Source: a virus
Taxonomy: Duplodnaviria; Heunggongvirae; Uroviricota; Caudoviricetes
DNA length: 11,086 bases
Virus record (IMG/VR): IMGVR_UViG_2585427794_000002
Strand: one strand, 5' to 3'
Made by a program: the position numbers and the translations under genes. Positions 1-11,086 of the stretch are shown piece by piece. Position 1 is the stretch's first letter; each line of letters begins with the position of its first letter. The notes beneath the pieces are model-generated. The model ran no database searches, was not told the DNA's origin, and worked only from the letters and a program-made list of their open reading frames with translations.

Positions 1-2469
1 CAAGGTCCGGCAACTTCCGACTCCGGTATAGAAGTTAACCAGAATATAGCTGTCGCCAGAGCGGGTGACCTTATAAGCGCCTGATTCGGCATTCCAGGGA
101 ACGCCCCCATCCGCATCGGCATATGTATCCGTTGCCCTTCTGGCAAAAGCAGCCACATGCGCGGCGGTTAAAGTGATATCAGTAGAACCATCAAATGGAA
201 CACCGGATATTTTTCTTGCAGTCTGAAGTTTTGTAGCAGTTGCAGCATTACCAGTGGTGTTCTGATTACCCGTAGTGTTTACACCTGGAAGGTTAATATT
301 TGCAGAACCGTCGAAAACAACTCCACCGATAGATCTTGCCGTCTGCAATTTCGTGGCTGTACTTGCATTACCATTCAATGAACCAGTTAATCCACCTGTA
401 ACAGACAACGGACCTGAAACTGTTCCTCCGGTTGTTGGCAGTGCTCCAATATCTGATGGTGTAGGTTTCTGATGTGAGCTATACATCGTATAAACAACAC
501 CATAGGTAACGCTGGAAGGCTTACTCGCTGAATATGTTGGCGAGGTATAAACAGAAACTGTCGCATTTGCAGTACAATCCCAATGGATATTTACACGAGT
601 CGCATAATTGCCAATCTCAACGTAAATATCATATGTATCGCCGGATGTGTTGATCCAGGCGAAATTCGTTAATCCGACGGCTGTACGCTTCCACAAAGCC
701 CCGGTAATTCCTTTGGGGTTTCCATTGCCTGCTCGTAGAACCAGTTCTGAAATGCCTGCCTGATGTGGGGAACCGACGTTGTAACCAGCGCCACCAATCA
801 ATGCGATGTAAACGATGGAACTCGCTTGTGGCATGGTAACCGTAGCCAGTTTGAACCACCCAGCCCCGCCAGAGAAAGACATCGTTACTGAATTTAAAGT
901 ACCAATATCTTTCGGCGTTAATGTTATATCCGCAGTCAGTGCTTTTCCGTTAACTTTTCGGTTAGATGGCACCCTGCTATTCGCATTGTCATTGGCTGCT
1001 TTAACTGCTTTTGGCGTTGCGGCCAGCGATTCACTGGTGCTATCAACAGCACTGCTAAGTTTCACAACACCTTTAGTTGTAAGGCTTGCGTCTTCCATCG
1101 CAACTGCACCGGCAATCTCTTCAGCACGATCAGCAGCAGCTTCCGCACGGGTCGCAGCGGATTCAGCAGCAGTTTTGCTCTGAGATGCTGCCGTCGCACT
1201 GCCTGCCGCCTCTGTTGCTTTCGTGGATGCCGTCGTGGCGCTGCCCTTCGCTGCTGACGCCTGTCTGGTCGCCTCATCTTTTGAAGCAGACGCAGATGAT
1301 GCCGATGACGCTGCCGAACTGGCGGACGATGCGGCTGCCGTTTTTGAGGATTCTGCACGGGTTTCCGACGCTTTCGCATTCGTTTCGGATGTCTTCGCTG
1401 CGGAAGCAGACCTCGCTGCTGCGCTGGCCTGTACAGCGGCTTCGCCAGCCTTCGTTGTGGCTGTTGAAGCGGACGATGCAGCACTTTCTGCCGATTTTCC
1501 GGCGGCGGTGGCACTGGCTGAGGCCTGCCCGGCACTTGTTGACGCGGCACTGGCAGACGACGCAGCCGCTGTTTTTGAGCCTGCCGCAGCTGAGGCACTC
1601 TGTCCCGCTGCCGTTTCAGAAGCCTTGGCGTTCGTCTCGGACGTTTTTGCCGCCTTCGCAGAATTTGCTGTCGCCGTTGCCGAGGAAGCTGCGCTGCTGG
1701 CGCTCGAGGCTGCGCTCGTTTCTGATGATTTTGCCGCCTCTTTTGAAGCCGACGCATCCCGGGCTGAGGTGGCAGCTTCTGACGCTTTCGTGGTCGCGGT
1801 GGATGCTGAAGTGGCTGCTGATTGTTGTGACGCTGCCGCATTCGTTTCTGACGTTTTTGCCGCAGCGGCACTGGTGGCCGCCGCGCTTTTTGAGGACTCT
1901 GCAGCGGCAGCACTTTTTGATGCTTCAGTGGCCTTTGCTGATGCCGTTCCTGCGCTGGAAGACGCTGACTGAGCCGACGACGCGGCCTGTCCGGCTGACG
2001 TGCTGGCTGCGCGTGCTGAGCCTGCAGCATCAGTCGCATGGGTTGCCGCCTCACGGGCAGATGTGCTGGCATCACTGGCTGACTTCTTCGCGGCTGCCGT
2101 GTTCTGTGCCACTGCGGACGCGTTACGCGCCACCTCTTCCACCATCAGTTCAAAACGGCGCAGTGCCTCTGGCCGGACATCATCCTCCGTCATTGCACCG
2201 AGGAAATCATTCAGTGTGCCCGGCTTTGAGTCCTCATATACGGTGATAATCCCGGCGTGTGACGGCGGGAATCCCTCCACCAACAGACTGACGCTGTACT
2301 GACCATACTCGACGTCCATTGTGTAACGCCCGGCTTCATCCGGGTTTTCTGAGGCCACTGTGTTCACCACCACCGTGGTGCTGTTGCGCCTGGCCTTTAG
2401 CTGAATGGTGCAGTTTTGTATCGGCTTACCTGCGCCATCTTTCAGTACACCTGAAATCCGTACTGCCAT
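1..2469 (-). CDS. stf: Side tail fibre protein (Stf-like); partial, 3' end lies beyond the left window edge
   Basis: Hand translation of the minus-strand frame starting at ATG 2469..2467 is open for 823 codons to position 1. This frame is not in the ORF track because it has no in-window stop. N-terminus MAVRISGVLKDGAGKPIQNCTIQLKARRNSTTVVVN... closely matches the lambda Stf / Rac StfR N-terminus as I recall it. It is followed by a long Ala/Ser/Thr-rich low-complexity segment and distal tail-fibre repeats (GNASTATKLQTARSIGGVVFDGS...). A G-rich Shine-Dalgarno-like stretch (GGGGGGAAT) sits directly upstream of the ATG. Confidence 0.85.
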   Translation of the reverse strand, partial: MAVRISGVLKDGAGKPIQNCTIQLKARRNSTTVVVNTVASENPDEAGRYTMDVEYGQYSVSLLVEGFPPSHAGIITVYEDSKPGTLNDFLGAMTEDDVRPEALRRFELMVEEVARNASAVAQNTAAAKKSASDASTSAREAATHATDAAGSARAASTSAGQAASSAQSASSSAGTASAKATEASKSAAAAESSKSAAATSAAAAKTSETNAAASQQSAATSASTATTKASEAATSARDASASKEAAKSSETSAASSASSAASSATATANSAKAAKTSETNAKASETAAGQSASAAAGSKTAAASSASAASTSAGQASASATAAGKSAESAASSASTATTKAGEAAVQASAAARSASAAKTSETNAKASETRAESSKTAAASSASSAASSASSASASKDEATRQASAAKGSATTASTKATEAAGSATAASQSKTAAESAATRAEAAADRAEEIAGAVAMEDASLTTKGVVKLSSAVDSTSESLAATPKAVKAANDNANSRVPSNRKVNGKALTADITLTPKDIGTLNSVTMSFSGGAGWFKLATVTMPQASSIVYIALIGGAGYNVGSPHQAGISELVLRAGNGNPKGITGALWKRTAVGLTNFAWINTSGDTYDIYVEIGNYATRVNIHWDCTANATVSVYTSPTYSASKPSSVTYGVVYTMYSSHQKPTPSDIGALPTTGGTVSGPLSVTGGLTGSLNGNASTATKLQTARSIGGVVFDGSANINLPGVNTTGNQNTTGNAATATKLQTARKISGVPFDGSTDITLTAAHVAAFARRATDTYADADGGVPWNAESGAYKVTRSGDSYILVNFYTGVGSCRTL
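169..372 (-). repeat. Two tandem ~28-aa phage tail-fibre repeats inside stf (about 169..252 and 289..372)
   Basis: Encoded peptides GNASTATKLQTARSIGGVVFDGSANINL and GNAATATKLQTARKISGVPFDGSTDITL. The underlying DNA is a direct imperfect repeat (tgcattacc...ttgccgtctgcaa / tgcagcattacc...ttgcagtctgaag). Confidence 0.6.
1110..2130 (-). repeat. Low-complexity Ala/Ser/Thr-rich coding repeat region of stf with a recurring KTSETNA motif
   Basis: Near-identical DNA motifs gcattcgtttcggatgtcttcgc (1375..1397), gcgttcgtctcggacgtttttgc (1628..1650) and gcattcgtttctgacgtttttgc (1838..1860) each encode AKTSETNA in the stf frame. GC-rich codon-periodic repetition generates spurious long ORFs in other frames on both strands. 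Confidence 0.65.
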
Positions 2470-2480
2470 ATTCCCCCCAC

Positions 2481-2507
2481 AAAAAAGCCCGCCTGAACCG
2501 GCGGGCT
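2481..2507 (-). terminator. Rho-independent terminator downstream of lom
   Basis: Minus-strand transcript reads GCCCGCC-GGUUCA-GGCGGGC followed by UUUUUUG. It lies between the lom stop (2534) and the stf start (2469). Confidence 0.6.
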
Positions 2508-2533
2508 GTCATAACACTGTGTTACCTGGCTAA

Positions 2534-3133
2534 TCAGAATTTATAACCGACACCAACGATGAAACTGTTGGTACGCCAGTCACCGCTGCCGGAGCCTTCA
2601 TAAGCGACGTCAACGGCCACGGATTCGGTCGGGTTAAACTGCACGCCAGCTCCCCACGCCAGAGACGTGTTGCTGTGGCGACCGTCATCACTTCCGGTCA
2701 GCACATCGTGCGTTTTCCCCTTGTTGTCAGTTACGCGGATATAATCCCCGGAGAAAGTCGACACACGGCTGTAAGCCATACCCGCCATCGCATACGCGCT
2801 GAACCATTCATTCACGCGCACAGACGGCCCCGCCATCACGCTGAACCAGCGATTACGCACGGAATCCTCATGCCAGCGGGTATCGCTGTAATGCGTTTTT
2901 TGCTCATCTTCAGCGTTGGCATAACTGAATGACGTAATCAGCCCCAGCGTGTCCGTAAACTCATAACGGTATTTCACGTTAATCCCGTTCAGATTTTCGC
3001 TGCCGGGAGCGTTCGTACGGGCATGAAGATACCCTGCGCTCAGTGTGGCCTGCTGCTCAGACGCCCATGCAGGCGCACCGGATACGGCCAGACAGATGGC
3101 TGCGGACAAAATGGCTGCACAAACTTTACGCAT
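2534..3133 (-). CDS. lom: Lom-like outer membrane protein (Ail/Lom/PagC family beta-barrel)
   Basis: 199-aa ORF with a signal peptide (MRKVCAAILSAAICLAVSGAPAWA) and C-terminal ...YEGSGSGDWRTNSFIVGVGYKF matching my recollection of lambda Lom. Position immediately after J matches lambda gene order. RBS GAGAGG lies upstream of the ATG. Confidence 0.9.
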   Translation of the reverse strand: MRKVCAAILSAAICLAVSGAPAWASEQQATLSAGYLHARTNAPGSENLNGINVKYRYEFTDTLGLITSFSYANAEDEQKTHYSDTRWHEDSVRNRWFSVMAGPSVRVNEWFSAYAMAGMAYSRVSTFSGDYIRVTDNKGKTHDVLTGSDDGRHSNTSLAWGAGVQFNPTESVAVDVAYEGSGSGDWRTNSFIVGVGYKF

Positions 3134-3157
3134 AATTACCTCTCGCTTTTCTGCAAT

Positions 3158-3181
3158 AAAAAAGGCGCCATTTCTGGCGCC
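3158..3181 (-). terminator. Rho-independent terminator-like hairpin between J and lom
   Basis: Minus-strand transcript reads GGCGCC-AGAAAU-GGCGCC followed by UUUUUUAUUG. It sits 20 nt past the J stop and about 25 nt before the lom start. Confidence 0.55.
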
Positions 3182-3200
3182 CGTATATGGGTTATAAAAT

Positions 3201-6200
3201 TCAGCTGATACTGATGCCTGCGGTGGCTTTCTTCATCACCACAACCAGCAAATCGCTGATACTTGCTGTGGGATACCAGTCATTTACCAGCCATGCTGAC
3301 ACCGAAAACTCCAGCGTCATGTGGCCGTGACCAGCTGGCATATCAATAACACCACTGTAAATCAGCGTATTATCCAGCGCGGTACGGTTATAAATTTCAG
3401 CACCATTTTTCTTCACTATCAGGCGGCATGAGGAGTAAATATCAGTATGCTCTCTCTCATGTTTAGCACCGCTGAATGCCACCGCCGGAATAACAATCTG
3501 CCGGTCAAACGGCTGATCGTCATAAATCCTGACGGTAATGGTCCCTGATGGCCACCGCTCCGGTGCCCGGGAGTCCCGCGGGAAAGCCTTACCCACTGTT
3601 TTGACAATATCGCCTTCAATCTGGTTGGCTGACAGTTTCCCTTTAATCTGACAGTTCTCATTTATCGTAACGTTGTTGAGCGTCCCGGCGTTCGCATTCA
3701 CACTGCCACTGATATCTGCATTTTTAGCGGTCAGCTTTCCGTCCGGTGTCATGGAAAATGCAGGAGGATTACCGCCGCTGGTAATGGTCGGAGCCGTCAG
3801 GCGTTTCAGGAACACGTCGTTCATGAATATCTGATCGCCCTGACCAACAAACATCGGCTTTGTGTTGCCATTCGCAGGATTAATCATCGCAATCCGATCA
3901 GCAGCCAGAAGCACCTGACTCTGCATACCTGCTGGCGTATTCTCAATACCGGCTCCGATACCCGCAATATAAAGGCGTCCGTCCTTCATCTGCTGCAGTT
4001 TCACGGCCCACATGCTGTTCAGGTTATTATTTGTATCAACCTGAACTTTCTGTATCTGCTGGATTGCCGCGCTCTGATTTTCCAGTTTTTTATTGACGGT
4101 CTGCGTGATTTCATTGCTGACATTCGTAATGGACGTCCTGATTTCAGCCAGGTCAGGCGCAAGCTGACCGTTATCAATCTGCGTCCACAGCTCCTGGGCC
4201 AGATGTGTTTTCCCGATTTCTCCTTTGAAAAAATCCAGGTAGCCTTCCGCATCATCGCTCGCCCGACCGACAGCCTCCACGAATGCCGATTTGCCGACTG
4301 TGTTCACACTGCGAACGTAAAAATAATAATCATGGCCCGGCTTAATATTGATACTGGCGGCTATCCAGTACAGCGCCGTACCAAGATAGCGGGCTGTGGT
4401 TTCAACCTGCCTGATATCCGCAATCCGCGTTTCCGAGAACCAGAACTCAAACTGTACCGTCGGATCATAAACCGCAAGATGCGGCGTGGCAGTTATCTGA
4501 AAATAGCCCGGCGTCAGCTCAATCCGCGACGGCGCTGCCGGGGCGGCAATCCGGAACGATACCGACGTCGGATCGCCCTGCTGTCCCCACGCATTTACCG
4601 CCCGGACCGTCAGCATGTAACGCCCCAGCGCCAGCTGCCTGAAGCGGTATGTGGTTTCCGTCGTCCGGGCCGTGCTGACCAGCCGCTCACTGCCGTCATC
4701 CGCTGTTACGGTCAGACGGAGCAGGAAGCTCACACCCTTCACCACCTTCGGCGTGTCCCAGCGCGCCAGCACCTGATATTCCCCGCTGTCTGCGGTGACT
4801 TCGGCGGTCAGGTGCTGCACCGCTGGCGGCGTGACACCATTCACCGTGCCGCTCTGGTCACCGTCAAAGTGCGCCCCGTTATCCACGATGGCTTCTTTTT
4901 CCGGTACATGCTGCACGGCGGTGATGGCATACGTGCCGTCGTCGTTCTCACGGATACTCACGCAGCGGAACAGGCGCTGGCGCAGCGTCGGCAGCTTCAG
5001 CCCCCACACGCTGTATTCAGCAACACCGTCAGGAACACGGCTCACTTTCACCTTCACGCCGTCGGTGACGGACTGAACCTCCACGCTGACCGGATTGCCA
5101 CTTCCGTCAACCAGGCTTATCAGCGTGGTACCGGAGGATGGCAGCGTGATTTCACGGTCGAGCGTCAGCGTCCGGGTCTGGCTGTTTACCGCCAGCACGC
5201 GCCCGCCGATGCTGATACCCGCATAGTCATCATCACAGATTTCAATGACATCGCCCGGCACATGGCGAAGCCCTTCTGCGCCCACGCTGAAGTCCACAGT
5301 CTGCGTTTCCAGCAGTTCTGTTTTAATCAGCCACAGCCCGGCGCGGTGTGCCTGCCCCCGGCTGGTACAGCCAAAAGCATCCATTTTCGTGACGTTACGA
5401 CCGTAACGGAGAATGGCCTGCGTATCTTCAACAAGCTCTGTCGCCGTCTCCCAGCCGTTATTCGGGTCAATCCAGTTCACCTCAACGGCATTATGGCGGT
5501 CCTTCAGGGCGCTGAAGCTGTAGCGGAACGGCGCACCATCATCCGGCATCACCACATTACTGCGGTTATAGGTCCACACCTTATCCGACGGTCGGTCCTG
5601 CACGAACGTCAGCGTCTGCCCGTTCCATACCGGCATACAGCGCATCGCAGAGCAGAAATCACTGAGCACATCCCACGCCTTGCGCTGTGTGGTCAGGTAC
5701 GCATTACAGGTGATGCGCGGCTCCGTGCCGCCAAAACCGTCCGGCACCGACTGATCGCAATGCTGGCCGATGACATACAGCGCCCATTTGTCCACATCCG
5801 CCGCACCAAGACGTTTCCCCATGCCGTAGCGCGGATGGGTCAGCATATCCCACAGACACCAGGCCATGTTGTTGCTGTATGCTGGCTTAAACGTTCCGTC
5901 CCAGATACCGCTGTATTGCCGCGTCTGCGGGTTATAGTTCGACGGCACCTGCAGAATACGCCCGCGCAGATGATAATTACGGCTCACCTGCTGGCTGCCG
6001 AACTGCTCCGAGTCCACCTGCACGCCGACCAGTGCCGTGTTCGGGTAGCCCTGTTTCACATCGATGATTTCGGTGTATGACGACCAGAGCGTTTTGTTCT
6101 GCAGCTGGTCTGTGGTGCTGTCCGGCGTCATCCTGCGCATCCGGATATTAAACGGGCGCGGCGGCAGGTTATCCACCACCACCGAGGCCAGATACTGCGA

Positions 6201-6680
6201 GGTGGTTTTGCCCTTAATGGTGATGTCTTTTTCCGTCACCCAGCCACCGTTACGCTGTATCTGAACCAGCAGGCGGACTTCCGACGGATTCCGGTCCCCC
6301 TTTGAGGTGGTTTCCACCAGTGCCTGCACACCGAAGGTAAAGCGCAGACGGTCGATGTTTGCCGACGTGATGGTCCGGGTGATCGGCGTGTCATATTTCA
6401 CTTCCGTACCCAGCACCGTCTCGGAGCCGGAGGATTCAAATCCCTCCGGCGGTGTCTGCTCCTGCTCACCTGCCCGGAACACCACCGTGACACCGGATAT
6501 ATTGGTATTCCCCTCACTGTCCAGCACCGGCGTACTGTTCAGCAGCACGCTTTTTAATCCGTCCACCGGACCTTCAATCGGCCCTTCGCTGATGGCATCA
6601 ATCGCACTCAACAGCTGCGTGGATTTCAGGTTATCTTTCGCTTCGCGCGGGGTATGCCCCTTACTGCTGCCTTTACCCAT
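3201..6680 (-). CDS. J: Tail tip / host specificity protein J (central tail fibre)
   Basis: 1159-aa ORF. N-terminal two-thirds ([45 protein letters not shown]...) is near-identical to lambda J as I recall it. Size and position (60 bp after I, followed by lom) match lambda. RBS GGAG lies upstream. Confidence 0.95.
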
Positions 6681-6702
6681 TCGTCATGCTCCATAAACGA
6701 CA

Positions 6703-6722
6703 AAACCGCCCGGAGGCGGTTT
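6703..6722 (-). promoter_or_regulatory. Intergenic stem-loop between I and J (possible attenuator or RNA-stability element)
   Basis: Perfect 8-bp inverted repeat AAACCGCC / GGCGGTTT with a 4-nt loop in the 60-bp I-J gap. On the minus-strand transcript the hairpin is followed by UUUUGUCGUUUAUGGAGCAUG, which contains the J RBS and start. Confidence 0.3.
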
Positions 6723-6740
6723 CACATAAAACATTTTGCA

Positions 6741-7382
6741 TCAGCGACCAATCACCACAACCTGACCACCGTCCCCTTCGTCTGCCGTGCTGATCTCCTG
6801 AGAAACCACCCGCGACCCCACACGCATTTCACCGTACAGAACAGGCAGAACATTGCCCTGAGCAACCATGTTATCCAGTGAAGAAAAATAGGTATTCTGT
6901 TTGCCGTTATCCGTTGTCTGTGTGCGGGGGGTTTTGGGTTTAGGGGCCAGCATCTGTGCAACACCGCCAAGCGTCATACTGGCACCGAGAGAAAACAGCA
7001 GATTACTCGCCATAATTCCTCCCCCCGGCATCCATATAGCAACCGCCATAACAGCCGCCCCCAGCACAGCCTGAAACACACCGCCACTTTTGGCTCCTGC
7101 CAGACGCGGCACGATATGGATCACGGCACCATTTTCCAGCGGCTCATTAAGACGGGCAGACAATTCGGTTTCACCTGCATCACGCCCGGCAATGCGTACC
7201 TGGTACCAGCCGTCGCTCAGTTTCTGACGAAACGCCGGGAGCTGAGTGGCCAGCGCCCGGATGGCTTCGGCCCCCGTTTTCACACGAAGGTCGATGCGGC
7301 GGCCAAATCGTTGCAAATCCCCGTAAAGGCAGATGCGTGCCATGCCCGGTGACGCCAGAGGGAGTGTGTGCGTCGCTGCCAT
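6741..7382 (-). CDS. I: Tail tip assembly protein I
   Basis: 213-aa ORF (MAATHTLPLASPGMARICLYGDLQRF...; C-terminus ...VSQEISTADEGDGGQVVVIGR) matching lambda gpI as I recall it. Contains a hydrophobic Gly/Ala-rich segment. Overlaps the 3' end of K by 103 nt in a different frame, as in lambda. Confidence 0.9.
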   Translation of the reverse strand: MAATHTLPLASPGMARICLYGDLQRFGRRIDLRVKTGAEAIRALATQLPAFRQKLSDGWYQVRIAGRDAGETELSARLNEPLENGAVIHIVPRLAGAKSGGVFQAVLGAAVMAVAIWMPGGGIMASNLLFSLGASMTLGGVAQMLAPKPKTPRTQTTDNGKQNTYFSSLDNMVAQGNVLPVLYGEMRVGSRVVSQEISTADEGDGGQVVVIGR

Positions 7383-8023
7383 TTGTCGGTATACCTCTCT
7401 CGTTTGCTCAGTTGTTCAGGAATATGGTGCAGCAGCTCGCCGTCGCCGCAGTAAATAGCGGCATGATTCGGCACCGATGAACCAAAACAGCACAGCAGCA
7501 CATCGCCCGGCTGCGCCGCTGACAACGGCACCTGATACAGCCCTGTAGCCTCCAGATTATCCAGATAGAGATTCTGACCGTTACGCCACCAGTCATCCCC
7601 GCGATGAAAATCCGGCATCTCAATCCCCGCCAGATGGTAAGCATCCCGGAACAGCGTGTAACAGTCCGTCACCCCGTGCTCAAAGCGCCGCCCGGTGAGA
7701 TGCGGCACACAGCGGAATTTATGAATCTCACCCCGGCAGACCAGCCACCACGGCAAATCACTCTGTACCTGCAGCCGCCGGTCGGCCTCACTCAGCCAGG
7801 GCAGACCACCGGGGTGGCTGTGGACCAGCGCCACAATCTCTCCCTGCATTTCTGCACTCAGCCAGTCCTCCGGCGACATCCGGAAATACTCCTCCGGCTC
7901 ACCGGAGATATTCACGCAGGGAAAATATCTTTCCTCCTCCGGCGTTCTCACCACGAAGCCGCACGACTCCGCTGGCGCACATCGCCGGGCGTGCGCCAGA
8001 ATCGCTGATTCTGTCTCTGTCAT
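7280..8023 (-). CDS. K: Tail tip assembly protein K (JAMM/MPN domain plus NlpC/P60 domain)
   Basis: 247-aa ORF starting 5 nt after the L stop. JAMM-like motif HSHPGGLPWLSEAD (H-x-H-x7-S-x2-D). NlpC/P60-like Cys in GVTDCYTLF and His in VPNHAAIY. An alternative internal start at 7879 (Met49, preceded by GGAGGAG) would give a 199-aa product. Confidence 0.85.
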   Translation of the reverse strand: MTETESAILAHARRCAPAESCGFVVRTPEEERYFPCVNISGEPEEYFRMSPEDWLSAEMQGEIVALVHSHPGGLPWLSEADRRLQVQSDLPWWLVCRGEIHKFRCVPHLTGRRFEHGVTDCYTLFRDAYHLAGIEMPDFHRGDDWWRNGQNLYLDNLEATGLYQVPLSAAQPGDVLLCCFGSSVPNHAAIYCGDGELLHHIPEQLSKRERYTDKWQRRTHSLWRHRAWHASAFTGICNDLAAASTFV

Positions 8024-8028
8024 GGGAT

Positions 8029-8727
8029 TTACTGCGAAAGTTTGTTAATGGAAAGGAAGCTGCCAAAGTTGCCGACATTATTGCGAAACTTACAGCCACT
8101 CAGGCATTTGCTGCATTTATCCTTCGTGATATCGGACGTCGGCTGGTCATATTCATCCGCGACCGCCGGACCGCTATAACCGCACTCATCGCCGCGATAG
8201 GTCCAGGTGCAGGTGTTGGCCAGCATGATACGTCCCGGAAAAACAGCGCCATCCGTTTCAGTCGGCGTGGACAGTACAAAAGAGGCACTGACCGCGCTCA
8301 GTTCGCTGCACTGCTCGATGCGCCAGCGGCTGATCACCTCCTGCTCCGGATCGGCTTCGCTGTTTCCGTTGACGAAGTTCACCGCATCCAGAAAGCGGGC
8401 GTAAACCTTACGCCGGACCACCGTTCCGCCGACCAGACTCTGCAGATCTTCCGCCATCCCGGTGATCATGCCGTGCAGGTTAGAGACCGTCAGTGTCGGA
8501 CGGGCAGCACTGCCCTTGCCGTTCATCTCAAATCCACTCCCCTGAATGGGATAGGCCTGATACTGCCGACTCTGCCAGGTGACAGACTCACCTTTTTCGT
8601 TCTGCTCATTACAGAAAAAGTAGCGATCCCCGCCTACCTCGGTCAGGTCGATTTCCCAGAGCACCACGCTGGCCGACTGCTCCGCACGAATGCATTCATT
8701 CAGCGTTTCCTGTTGTATGTCCTGCAT
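8029..8727 (-). CDS. L: Minor tail protein L
   Basis: 232-aa ORF, the same length as lambda gpL. C-terminal cysteine cluster (CTWTYRGDECGYSG...CSKCLSGCKF). Start codon overlaps the M stop (TGATG). Confidence 0.9.
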   Translation of the reverse strand: MQDIQQETLNECIRAEQSASVVLWEIDLTEVGGDRYFFCNEQNEKGESVTWQSRQYQAYPIQGSGFEMNGKGSAARPTLTVSNLHGMITGMAEDLQSLVGGTVVRRKVYARFLDAVNFVNGNSEADPEQEVISRWRIEQCSELSAVSASFVLSTPTETDGAVFPGRIMLANTCTWTYRGDECGYSGPAVADEYDQPTSDITKDKCSKCLSGCKFRNNVGNFGSFLSINKLSQ

Positions 8728-9065
8728 CAGATCACCACTTCGTCAAACTGACACGAAAAATCGGTATAGGTGATATGTTCTGTCGCTGACCACGTTCGAC
8801 ACACCACTCTGATTTTTCTGTTAATACCCGGCGGGCGCCAAAAAAAAGATTTATAGCCTTCATGCCGGGCTAAAAATTTTTCAAATGAATCACGTTCATT
8901 CGCCTCAACTTTGAAATCACAGGTGAAAACGCGCAGAGAATGATTAAGTCCATTTGGACTTCGTTGCTCATAACCATCGCCAAATCTTACAGTTTTTATC
9001 GATGGTTTATTTTCTGTTTTCATTCCATCCTCTGGTAACCAGTGAAATTCTTCCGTATTAGCCAC
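8727..9065 (-). CDS. M: Minor tail protein M
   Basis: 112-aa ORF containing VRFGDGYEQRSPNGLN and ...KSFFWRPP..., resembling lambda gpM (VRFGDGYSQRAPAGLN ... KSFLWTPP). Start overlaps the H stop by 8 nt. Confidence 0.9.
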   Translation of the reverse strand: MANTEEFHWLPEDGMKTENKPSIKTVRFGDGYEQRSPNGLNHSLRVFTCDFKVEANERDSFEKFLARHEGYKSFFWRPPGINRKIRVVCRTWSATEHITYTDFSCQFDEVVI

Positions 9066-10822
9066 TTAATATTCCCCCATCACGTCGCATATTTAACAGA
9101 TTGCCCTGCACCCGCTGATCAACCATCCCCATAAGTGCTTTTATTGCCTGAGGGCCAATCTCTCCATTCTGGCCGTCATTTTGAATAGTGATTTGGTATA
9201 CAGGGGCATAGGTAATATCTCCGCCTCCATTACCACTTTTACTATTAATAGCTCTGACACCAAGAGAACCATCGGAAGTTCGTGTTAATGGCATAATGGC
9301 TTCCGGTCCAGCCTCACCAAAAACACCAGCCCCTTTTGCAAAAGCAAAAAATTGCGGGGAATCATAAATACCGTTCGAATACGTGCTCAATGACGGAGAC
9401 TCATAAACACCGCCCTTTGCATTCGGAATAAATTTACTAATAGCACTCCCGATAGTTCCTAAAATCCCCCCAGAAGAACTGTTACTAATGCTGTCGAAAA
9501 TCCCAGTAATTGAAGCCTTTAATGCCATTCGACTAAGATCCGAAATCACGGAAGTAGCGAAAGAACGAAAATTTGCCTTGCCTGTCGTGACAAAATCACC
9601 CAGCGCATCGGTCATCCCATCAAACATCTGAGTCGTGGTTGATTTTATCTGCTCACTGATATCCTTAGTGTCATCCAGCCAGTTATTGAATCCCTGGGAG
9701 GCACTACTAACCCAGTCTCCTGCCTGAATATCGAGCTGCTCGTTTTTCTGTCTGACAATTTCTTTTTCCCGTTCCAGAGCATCATTCAGAGCCTGCATTT
9801 TCTCTTGAAAAACATGATCTGACATTCCACGGGATTTATCTGCATAGTCACGTTCAAGTTGCAGACGCTGATTGTTATATCCATGTTCAATCCGCAGTAA
9901 TTCCTGCTGGCGTTGCTGATTTTTATCGCCAACCCCATAACCAGCAATCTGAATATCATACCCCTGCTGACGATTATCAATCGAAGCCTGCAATGAATCA
10001 CGCCATGCTGTTATTTCGGCGGATTCCTTGATTAGCCTGTTATTCTTTTCAATCGCAACATTTTTCTCCATCAACGCGGTTATTTCTTCCCGGTGTAAGA
10101 GAAGCGATTTCTGATCCTGGGTTAATTTCGATGATGGTCGTGACTCTAGGTCGGCAATCCGCTGACGCCACTTAACCAGTTCCTGTTCAGAGGAACTTAA
10201 TTTAACGGTCAACTCAGCTTGTGAACTTAGTAACGCATTCTGTTGATTCAGATGATCAATCATTCGTTGGGCTGCATCATCAGAATAACCTTTCGCCTTT
10301 GGTTGCTTTGGATCTTTATAACGCTCATTTATTTGAGCGATAAGATTATTATATTCTTCCTTTGAATACTGATTCTTTAGCTTTTCCAGTTTTGCAAGTT
10401 CACTAGCTCTCTGCTGCTCCCGGGTCTGATATTGTTTTGAAAAGGCATCTGCTCTCTGTCTGAGTTCAATTCCTTCCTGTTGTCGCTTGTTGTAATCGTT
10501 TATTGATGAATTTAGTACGTCCTGAGCAATTTTTTCTGCTTGAAGTACGCCCAATTGCTGCTTTAATCGTGCCAGCCTTTTATTTTGAGCTCCGCCATCT
10601 CCAATGCCACCTAACCCGAAAACTCCGGGTCGGGTATTTTTTTCTATTTCATCAATTTGACGGAGAACATCTGAGATTTTTTGATCAAGGGAGGCCTCAC
10701 GGCCAATATCCAGCATGGAATCCCATGCCCATTTTGCGGAGTCTGCGACAGCTTTCCATGCAGTCTCAAGATAACCAAGATTTTCTTTAATCTGGTTGGT
10801 GCGCTGGATCATTGAGGATGAG
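9058..10822 (-). pseudogene. H: Tail tape-measure protein H, 5'-truncated by IS1 insertion (C-terminal ~588 codons retained)
   Basis: The minus-strand ORF resembles the middle and C-terminal parts of lambda gpH (e.g. ENLGYLETAWKAVADSAKWAWDSMLDIGR vs lambda ENMGTLETWADRTARAFKSMWDAVLDIGR; C-terminus ...MRRDGGILSG vs lambda ...MRDGGLFSGGGR). The 5' end of the ORF-track ORF (MESLPSSS, TTG start) is encoded by the IS1 inverted repeat, so authentic H sequence begins only at 10822. Confidence 0.85.
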
Positions 10823-11086
10823 GGTAATGACTCCAACTTATTGATAGTGTTTTATGTTCAGATAATGCCCGATGACTTTGTCATGCAGCTCCACCGATTT
10901 TGAGAACGACAGCGACTTCCGTCCCAGCCGTGCCAGGTGCTGCCTCAGATTCAGGTTATGCCGCTCAATTCGCTGCGTATATCGCTTGCTGATTACGTGC
11001 AGCTTTCCCTTCAGGCGGGATTCATACAGCGGCCAGCCATCCGTCATCCATATCACCACGTCAAAGGGTGACAGCAGGCTCATAAG
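10823..11086 (-). mobile_element. IS1 insertion sequence, right end (partial; continues beyond the window)
   Basis: Sequence from 10823, GGTAATGACTCCAACTTATTGATAGTGTTTTATGTTCAG..., is the IS1 terminal inverted repeat and adjacent sequence as I recall it. The minus-strand ORF encodes the InsB C-terminus ...[18 protein letters not shown]. Confidence 0.95.
10838..11086 (-). CDS. insB: IS1 transposase InsB, C-terminal part (5' end outside the window)
   Basis: Translation [81 protein letters not shown] matches the IS1 InsB C-terminus as I recall it. The reading frame continues upstream past the window edge. Confidence 0.9.

Follow-up and report, generated by a model that had tools for sequence, protein, structure and literature searches.

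Probable simple insertion of IS1 into the tail tape-measure gene of a putative Rac-type prophage in Escherichia coli 6-175-07_S4_C3

Rac-type prophages and the tail module under study

The Rac prophage of E. coli K-12 has lost most of its head and tail genes and keeps a tape-measure remnant (tmpR) and an IS5-interrupted lomR. The tail tape measure is one continuous ruler, as established for lambda H, and the late operons of lambdoid phages are transcribed by a Q-modified, termination-resistant polymerase. The prophage of E. coli strain PD4 carries intR, xisR, ralR, recT, recE, racC, kilR, sieB, trkG, ynaK, head genes, ydaY, tfaR and pinR, sits between ttcA and uspF/ompN, and is typed as a full-length Rac prophage. 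Its intact tape-measure gene, like that of strain 7/2, measures 3234 nt and encodes 1077 aa annotated as 'phage tail tape measure protein'. The intact allele is also found in ten deposited phage genomes (98.4–99.8% identity), and the uninterrupted gene therefore belongs to phages already recovered. Between the tail tube and tape-measure genes of the PD4 prophage lie ydaY (119 aa, no Pfam match; locus positions 1428–1787) and an unannotated gap of about 470 nt, which together occupy the place of the lambda G and G-T frameshifted chaperones; ydaY may be a G-like chaperone of this prophage.

The window, that is, the whole stretch of 11,086 nt analysed here, matches base for base the reverse complement of a whole draft contig, JORK01000073.1 (GCA_000713175.1), of E. 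coli 6-175-07_S4_C3. Positions 1–10822 are 99.6% identical to the tail module of the PD4 prophage, with 42 mismatches and no gaps. Through this relative the interrupted prophage can be typed as a putative full-length Rac-type lambdoid prophage, the Rac location and marker genes being those seen in PD4 and the window itself holding tail genes only. The window ends in the side tail fibre gene on the left and in IS1 on the right, both of them repeats, and both ends are assembly breaks, not biological boundaries. Its right end lies where the assembly broke within IS1, and JORK01 contains no rightward extension. Three more draft assemblies of the same project (four in all) contain the identical junction, base for base, and these three likewise break about 240–260 bp into IS1.

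Downstream of the tape-measure gene, the genes from M to lom are intact and the side tail fibre gene is cut by the contig end (Table 1). A 249-aa ORF lies antisense within the tail fibre gene (window 1223–1972, plus strand); it is present in public gene calls, lacks a Pfam match, is placed like orf206b in the lambda stf region and is probably spurious. An Rfam scan of the window gave no match. Contig JOSG01000022.1 has the identical IS1/tape-measure junction, and its J, lom and tail-fibre region is only 87–97% identical to window 21–4222, with J called at 1132 aa versus 1159 aa in the window. Recombination appears to have replaced the host-range end of the tail module in this lineage, which shares the insertion.

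Table 1. Coordinates of features in the 11,086-nt window.
Feature	Position	Strand	Basis
Side tail fibre gene (stfR-like), first 823 codons, cut by contig end	1..2469	-	Pfam phage_tail_N, E 1.6e-71; PD4 homologue 3228 nt
Lom/Ail outer-membrane protein homologue, intact	2534..3133	-	Pfam Ail_Lom, E 5.7e-125
Tail tip attachment protein J homologue, 1159 aa, intact	3201..6680	-	Seven gpJ-related Pfam domains; gpJ in PD4
Tail assembly protein I homologue, intact	6741..7343	-	Pfam Lambda_tail_I, E 1e-24; start from PD4 annotation
Tail protein K homologue (JAB + NlpC/P60), intact	7280..8023	-	Pfam Prok-JAB, NLPC_P60
Minor tail protein L homologue, intact	8029..8727	-	Pfam Phage_tail_L, E 7e-98
Minor tail protein M homologue, intact	8727..9065	-	Pfam Phage_min_tail, E 1.2e-31; PD4 CDS coordinates match after offset
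Tail tape-measure gene, 3′ fragment (last base of codon 490, codons 491–1077, stop)	9058..10822	-	PD4 comparison and Pfam
Candidate 9-bp target-site duplication, one copy: GAGGATGAG (plus strand), CTCATCCTC (gene strand), gene nt 1470–1478	10814..10822		Junction-ORF test
IS1 right terminal inverted repeat (IRR), GGTAATGACTCCAACTTATTGAT	10823..10845		Read directly
3′ 264 bp of IS1 (IS1A type), ends at contig end	10823..11086	-	264/264 identity to annotated IS1A copies
IS1 transposase, C-terminal 81 codons (InsB part), stop codon 10838–10840	10838..11083	-	Pfam DDE_Tnp_IS1

The IS1 end and the interrupted gene

Read directly on the plus strand, the junction is ...CATTGAGGATGAG / GGTAATGACTCCAACTTATTGATAGTG..., the stroke standing between 10822 and 10823. 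The terminal 23-mer fits the form of the IS1-family terminal repeat of about 23 bp (GGT(G/A)ATG...), is identical to the annotated IS1 IRR, and also terminates the IS1 copies of two other loci (L009 and L010, the latter from E. coli PSS-13). Over positions 10823–11086 all 264 bases agree with IS1A copies of E. coli LR-29-1 and PD4, both recorded as 'IS1-like element IS1A family transposase' with programmed frameshift; the LR-29-1 copy measures 768 bp. The window takes in no more than the 3′ third of the element and ends before reaching the frameshift site and the insA part. Its minus-strand ORF matches profile positions 51–131 of 131 of DDE_Tnp_IS1 (E 1.2e-44), and in the gene calls of the source contig this domain lies upstream of the tape-measure fragment on the same strand, so that the transposase is co-directional with the tail genes. 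IS1 is thus confirmed here in coordinates, strand and frame, far above chance.

The gene cut by this end retains its 3′ 55%. The retained coding sequence starts at window 10822 with gene nt 1470, the last base of codon 490, and encodes residues 491–1077; the N-terminal 490 residues are absent. Compared with the last 588 residues of the PD4 protein, the kept fragment shows 2 aa differences, and it matches Pfam TMP_4 and Tape_meas_lam_C (E 5.8e-25 for the latter). The absent part includes the conserved hydrophobic MRMLPAQ...GLAYY segment, and the break point falls at about residue 277 of lambda H in the alignment with gpH. The sequence-only reading had drawn the same boundary, with the IS1 right inverted repeat running from 10823 and the authentic frame resuming at 10822 without its N-terminal part, and both positions prove exact to the base. 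It had also named two findings that would speak against it, and neither is seen within the window: the DNA from 10823 onward is IS1 by both the Pfam match and the identity to IS1A, and 9058..10822 lacks 490 N-terminal residues relative to PD4 and does not hold an intact H.

That reading had called the interrupted gene H. As a tape-measure gene it is rightly named, and by sequence comparison it is a genuine gpH homologue: the 1077-aa protein aligns with lambda gpH in BLASTP (28% identity over 854 columns, lambda residues 57–850, E 3e-77) and, in the solved structure of the lambda tail, matches the chain for gpH (PDB 8iyk_H, E 4.5e-70), and its gene lies directly upstream of, and overlaps, M, followed by L-K-I-J. 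The label does not extend to lambda H itself, which is ruled out by the 28% identity and the unequal lengths (1077 versus 853 aa, with an extension of about 210 aa). The G+C content of the tape-measure gene is 0.45 versus 0.55 for the rest of the tail module; along the window, positions 9001–10800 range from 0.42 to 0.46 and the other tail genes from 0.53 to 0.65.

The GenBank protein KEM48528.1 of E. coli 6-175-07_S4_C3 (592 aa, 'tape measure protein, lambda family') starts at TTG 10836 within IS1. Its first four codons are IS1, and the fifth (10824–10822) consists of two IS1 bases and one tape-measure base. KEM48528.1 is a gene fragment, not a whole tape measure.

Origin of the junction

A simple insertion predicts a particular protein at the other side of the element. 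With a 9-bp duplication of CTCATCCTC, which is single-copy in the intact tape-measure gene, followed by the IS1 left inverted repeat (IRL, GGTGATGCTGCCAACTTACTGA), the 5′ ORF should consist of residues 1–493, then VMLPTY and a stop. This 499-aa protein is present exactly in the protein collection (P0121), its terminal VMLPTY and stop being the translation of IRL; the 5′ and 3′ junctions are known from separate assemblies. P0121 is found on 18 contigs of up to 19.8 kb, and its accessions (KEK92568.1, KEL06674.1, KEM09163.1 and KEM13601.1) belong to E. coli 4-203-08_S3_C2/C3, of the same project and isolate series. Versions of the 5′ junction protein with an 8-bp or 10-bp duplication were absent from the protein collection, as were 5′ junction versions on P0005- and P0022-type N-terminal alleles and opposite-orientation 3′ ORFs (MAASPSSS-type). 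The candidate duplication ending at 10822 that had been noted earlier (GAGGATGAG) is thereby borne out, since its complementary 9-bp junction ORF exists exactly. Rebuilding the frame without IS1, as that reading had proposed, likewise succeeds: residues 1–493 of P0121 and the window fragment give the full 1077-aa protein, with 2 differences from the intact PD4 allele.

The 3′ fragment KEM10349 falls between the 5′ fragments KEM09163 and KEM13601, which are 4438 accession numbers apart. If accession blocks are contiguous per genome, KEM10349 would come from the same genome as one of these 5′ fragments; we infer the co-occurrence of both junctions from the shared sequencing project and this accession proximity. 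A search of all 5426 complete RefSeq E. coli genomes for the 3′ junction failed to find the site, and synthetic 5′ junctions with both IS1 end types were not found in the same set. Every match covering at least 80% in these searches consisted of two separate pieces, that is, of IS1 at other sites. An exact 32-mer spanning the junction had 0 matches in species-representative genomes.

These observations are best explained, and very probably so, by a simple IS1 insertion into the tape-measure gene of a Rac-type prophage in E. coli 6-175-07_S4_C3. In such an event IS1 (IS1A type) would have transposed into the gene between nt 1478 and 1470 of the duplicated CTCATCCTC, with its transposase co-directional. 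The 5′ junction DNA would then read ...GAAGAATACTCATCCTC / GGTGATGCTGCC... (probe form GAAGAATACTCATCCTCGGTGATGCTGCCAACTTACTGA), and the 1077-aa protein would be split into the 499-aa N-terminal ORF (1–493 plus VMLPTY and stop) and a promoterless C-terminal fragment (491/494–1077). The N-terminal half would lie on another contig because the short-read assembly broke in the repeated IS1.

Three other origins of the junction were weighed. In an IS1-mediated adjacent deletion or rearrangement, the 3′ fragment would be joined to unrelated DNA and the 5′ half, perhaps with the head genes, lost or moved. Such joins have parallels in PSS-13 and TW01221, where an IS1 that lacks a target duplication stands directly between tape-measure nt ~2082 and the 3′ end of lom, and in ETEC1717, whose second IS1 cuts the tape-measure gene at about codon 90, and the other side of the element lies outside the window. 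We nevertheless consider a deletion quite unlikely, because it would not leave the exact reciprocal 9-bp junction ORF that same-project isolates carry on contigs of up to 19.8 kb, and because the P0121 accession numbers bracket one 3′ fragment. Less probable again, and distinctly so, is a larger composite element flanked by two inverted IS1 copies with their IRR ends outward, of which the window would hold the outer end of one. Its expected product, residues 1–493 followed by the VMTPTY read-through of an IRR end at the same site, does exist as a 499-aa protein (P0133), but this comes from Logan/ENA only, whereas all assemblies with the window junction are NCBI records and the IRL-type P0121 occurs in NCBI records of the same project; P0133 is more simply a plain opposite-orientation insertion in other strains. 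Finally, the contig end inside a multicopy repeat is a place where misjoins can arise, and the gene could then be intact in the cell. That the IS1 end was misjoined to the tape-measure fragment is nonetheless scarcely credible, given that the junction is the same in four separate assemblies, falls exactly at the IS1 terminal base and has a reciprocal counterpart with the 9-bp duplication.

Consequences for the prophage and comparison with known systems

The tape-measure gene is split, and its 3′ fragment is cut off from its start and upstream sequences. By comparison with lambda H, the prophage would probably make no functional tape measure and hence no tails by itself, because the tape measure has to run through the tail tube as one polypeptide. 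Lambda H has been scored as essential (PMC10695390). A scan for sigma-70-like promoters over 10300–11086 found no site, leaving an outward IS1 promoter for the 3′ fragment unsupported, and the one terminator-like site in the same interval is on the non-coding strand and within chance expectation. The ATG at 10812 is an alternative start for a 584-aa C-terminal fragment; its nearest GGAG is 18 nt upstream and therefore too distant for normal Shine-Dalgarno spacing. Independent expression of the 3′ fragment is, on these sequence features, unsupported.

Tailed particles might still be produced despite a real insertion, through complementation by another lambdoid prophage or cooperation of the two fragments. 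Several lambdoid prophages are common in E. coli isolates, every downstream tail gene is intact, and the ATG at 10812 could start the C-terminal fragment. We think this unlikely: the interval around that start has neither a sigma-70-like promoter nor a GGAG at a suitable distance, the tape measure acts as a single continuous ruler, and cross-complementation requires a compatible tape measure with matching tip and chaperone specificity. Loss of tail formation by the prophage alone therefore stays our preferred reading. Two features make the insertion look recent: no damage is seen in the genes from M to stf, and only a few closely related isolates carry the allele.

It had further been proposed that IS1 may lower transcription of M, L, K, I and J by polarity. 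This part of the sequence-only reading is doubtful, because Q antiterminates late transcription in lambdoid phages and the Q protein of lambda suppresses polarity. In a recent review, lambda Q is named 'a proven polarity suppressor', and Q complexes are said to keep late transcription free of interruption (PMC12360218). In the PD4 prophage a DUF1133 gene just upstream of the lysis genes gives a borderline Phage_antitermQ match and is Q-like. Judged from Q antitermination, polar loss of downstream tail transcripts after induction would probably be small.

IS1 was found in the same tape-measure gene in LR-29-1, EEC_W5, ETEC1717-1730, OY757949, CUVM53, LR-48 and ET734. Proteins with IS1-derived tails (P0005, P0026 and P0060) mark insertions at residues 351, 585 and 659, and further sites at about nt 1800, 1920, 1929, 1936, 2038, 2082 and 2159 were deduced from the spacing of matched pieces, those at nt 1920, 1929 and 2082 being confirmed directly at sequence level. 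In complete E. coli genomes, IS1 breaks the gene in either orientation at some ten positions besides that of the window. With the protein tails included, the sites range from gene nt ~1050 to 2160, and where checked these are simple insertions with 8–9-bp duplications. In ETEC1717 the gene is hit twice by IS1: one copy has the target duplication CAGTATTCA, and the other is the copy at about codon 90. In PSS-13 (locus L010, 2255–3100) only the final 78 nt of lom remain at the join; M, L, K, I and J are deleted along with the rest of that gene, an arrangement reminiscent of the tmpR-lomR remnant in K-12 Rac. P0133, known as a protein alone, suggests an independent opposite-orientation IS1 insertion at the same 9 bp.

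IS1 prefers AT-rich targets. One could go further and see in CTCATCCTC a true IS1 hot spot, hit in both orientations (P0121 of the IRL type, P0133 of the IRR type), with AT-rich Rac tape measures inactivated repeatedly and above chance. We regard this as a speculative and rather doubtful extension; if true, it would amount to a recurrent, possibly selected, route by which E. coli disarms a Rac-type prophage while its other genes are kept.

The event itself is a textbook case of IS1 entering a prophage gene that is non-essential and an instance of routine prophage decay, known in kind and adding nothing beyond known biology; no paper on IS1 in a Rac tape-measure gene turned up in a literature search. 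The IS1 junction explains where the contig ends and corrects the annotation of KEM48528.1 to a gene fragment, with little import beyond annotation, and it singles out a Rac-type prophage that probably cannot form tailed virions on its own.

Set against the described systems, the element is an ordinary IS1 of the IS1A isoform of E. coli and Shigella: it agrees in its 264-bp sequence, canonical IRR and InsB C-terminus, and apparently also in the 9-bp target duplication, to which both junction ORFs point, and shows no difference across the 264 bp. The other insertions in complete genomes concern the same gene and the same element and differ in site, the site of the window occurring in 0 of 5426. 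Lambda gpH has in common with the Rac tape measure the C-terminal Tape_meas_lam_C domain and the gene order H-M-L-K-I-J-lom-stf; it measures 853 aa, whereas the 1077-aa Rac protein is extended at its N-terminus by about 210 aa of coiled coil. The Rac prophage of K-12 shares with the PD4 relative intR, xisR, recET, racC, kilR, sieB, trkG, ynaK, ydaY, tfaR and pinR, as well as the chromosomal neighbourhood of ttcA and ompN/uspF. Together with the other IS1 hits in this gene, the locus provides a small, well-resolved example of insertion sequences turning active prophages cryptic. In contrast to K-12 Rac, the whole tail module is present in the interrupted prophage and the tape-measure gene alone is broken.
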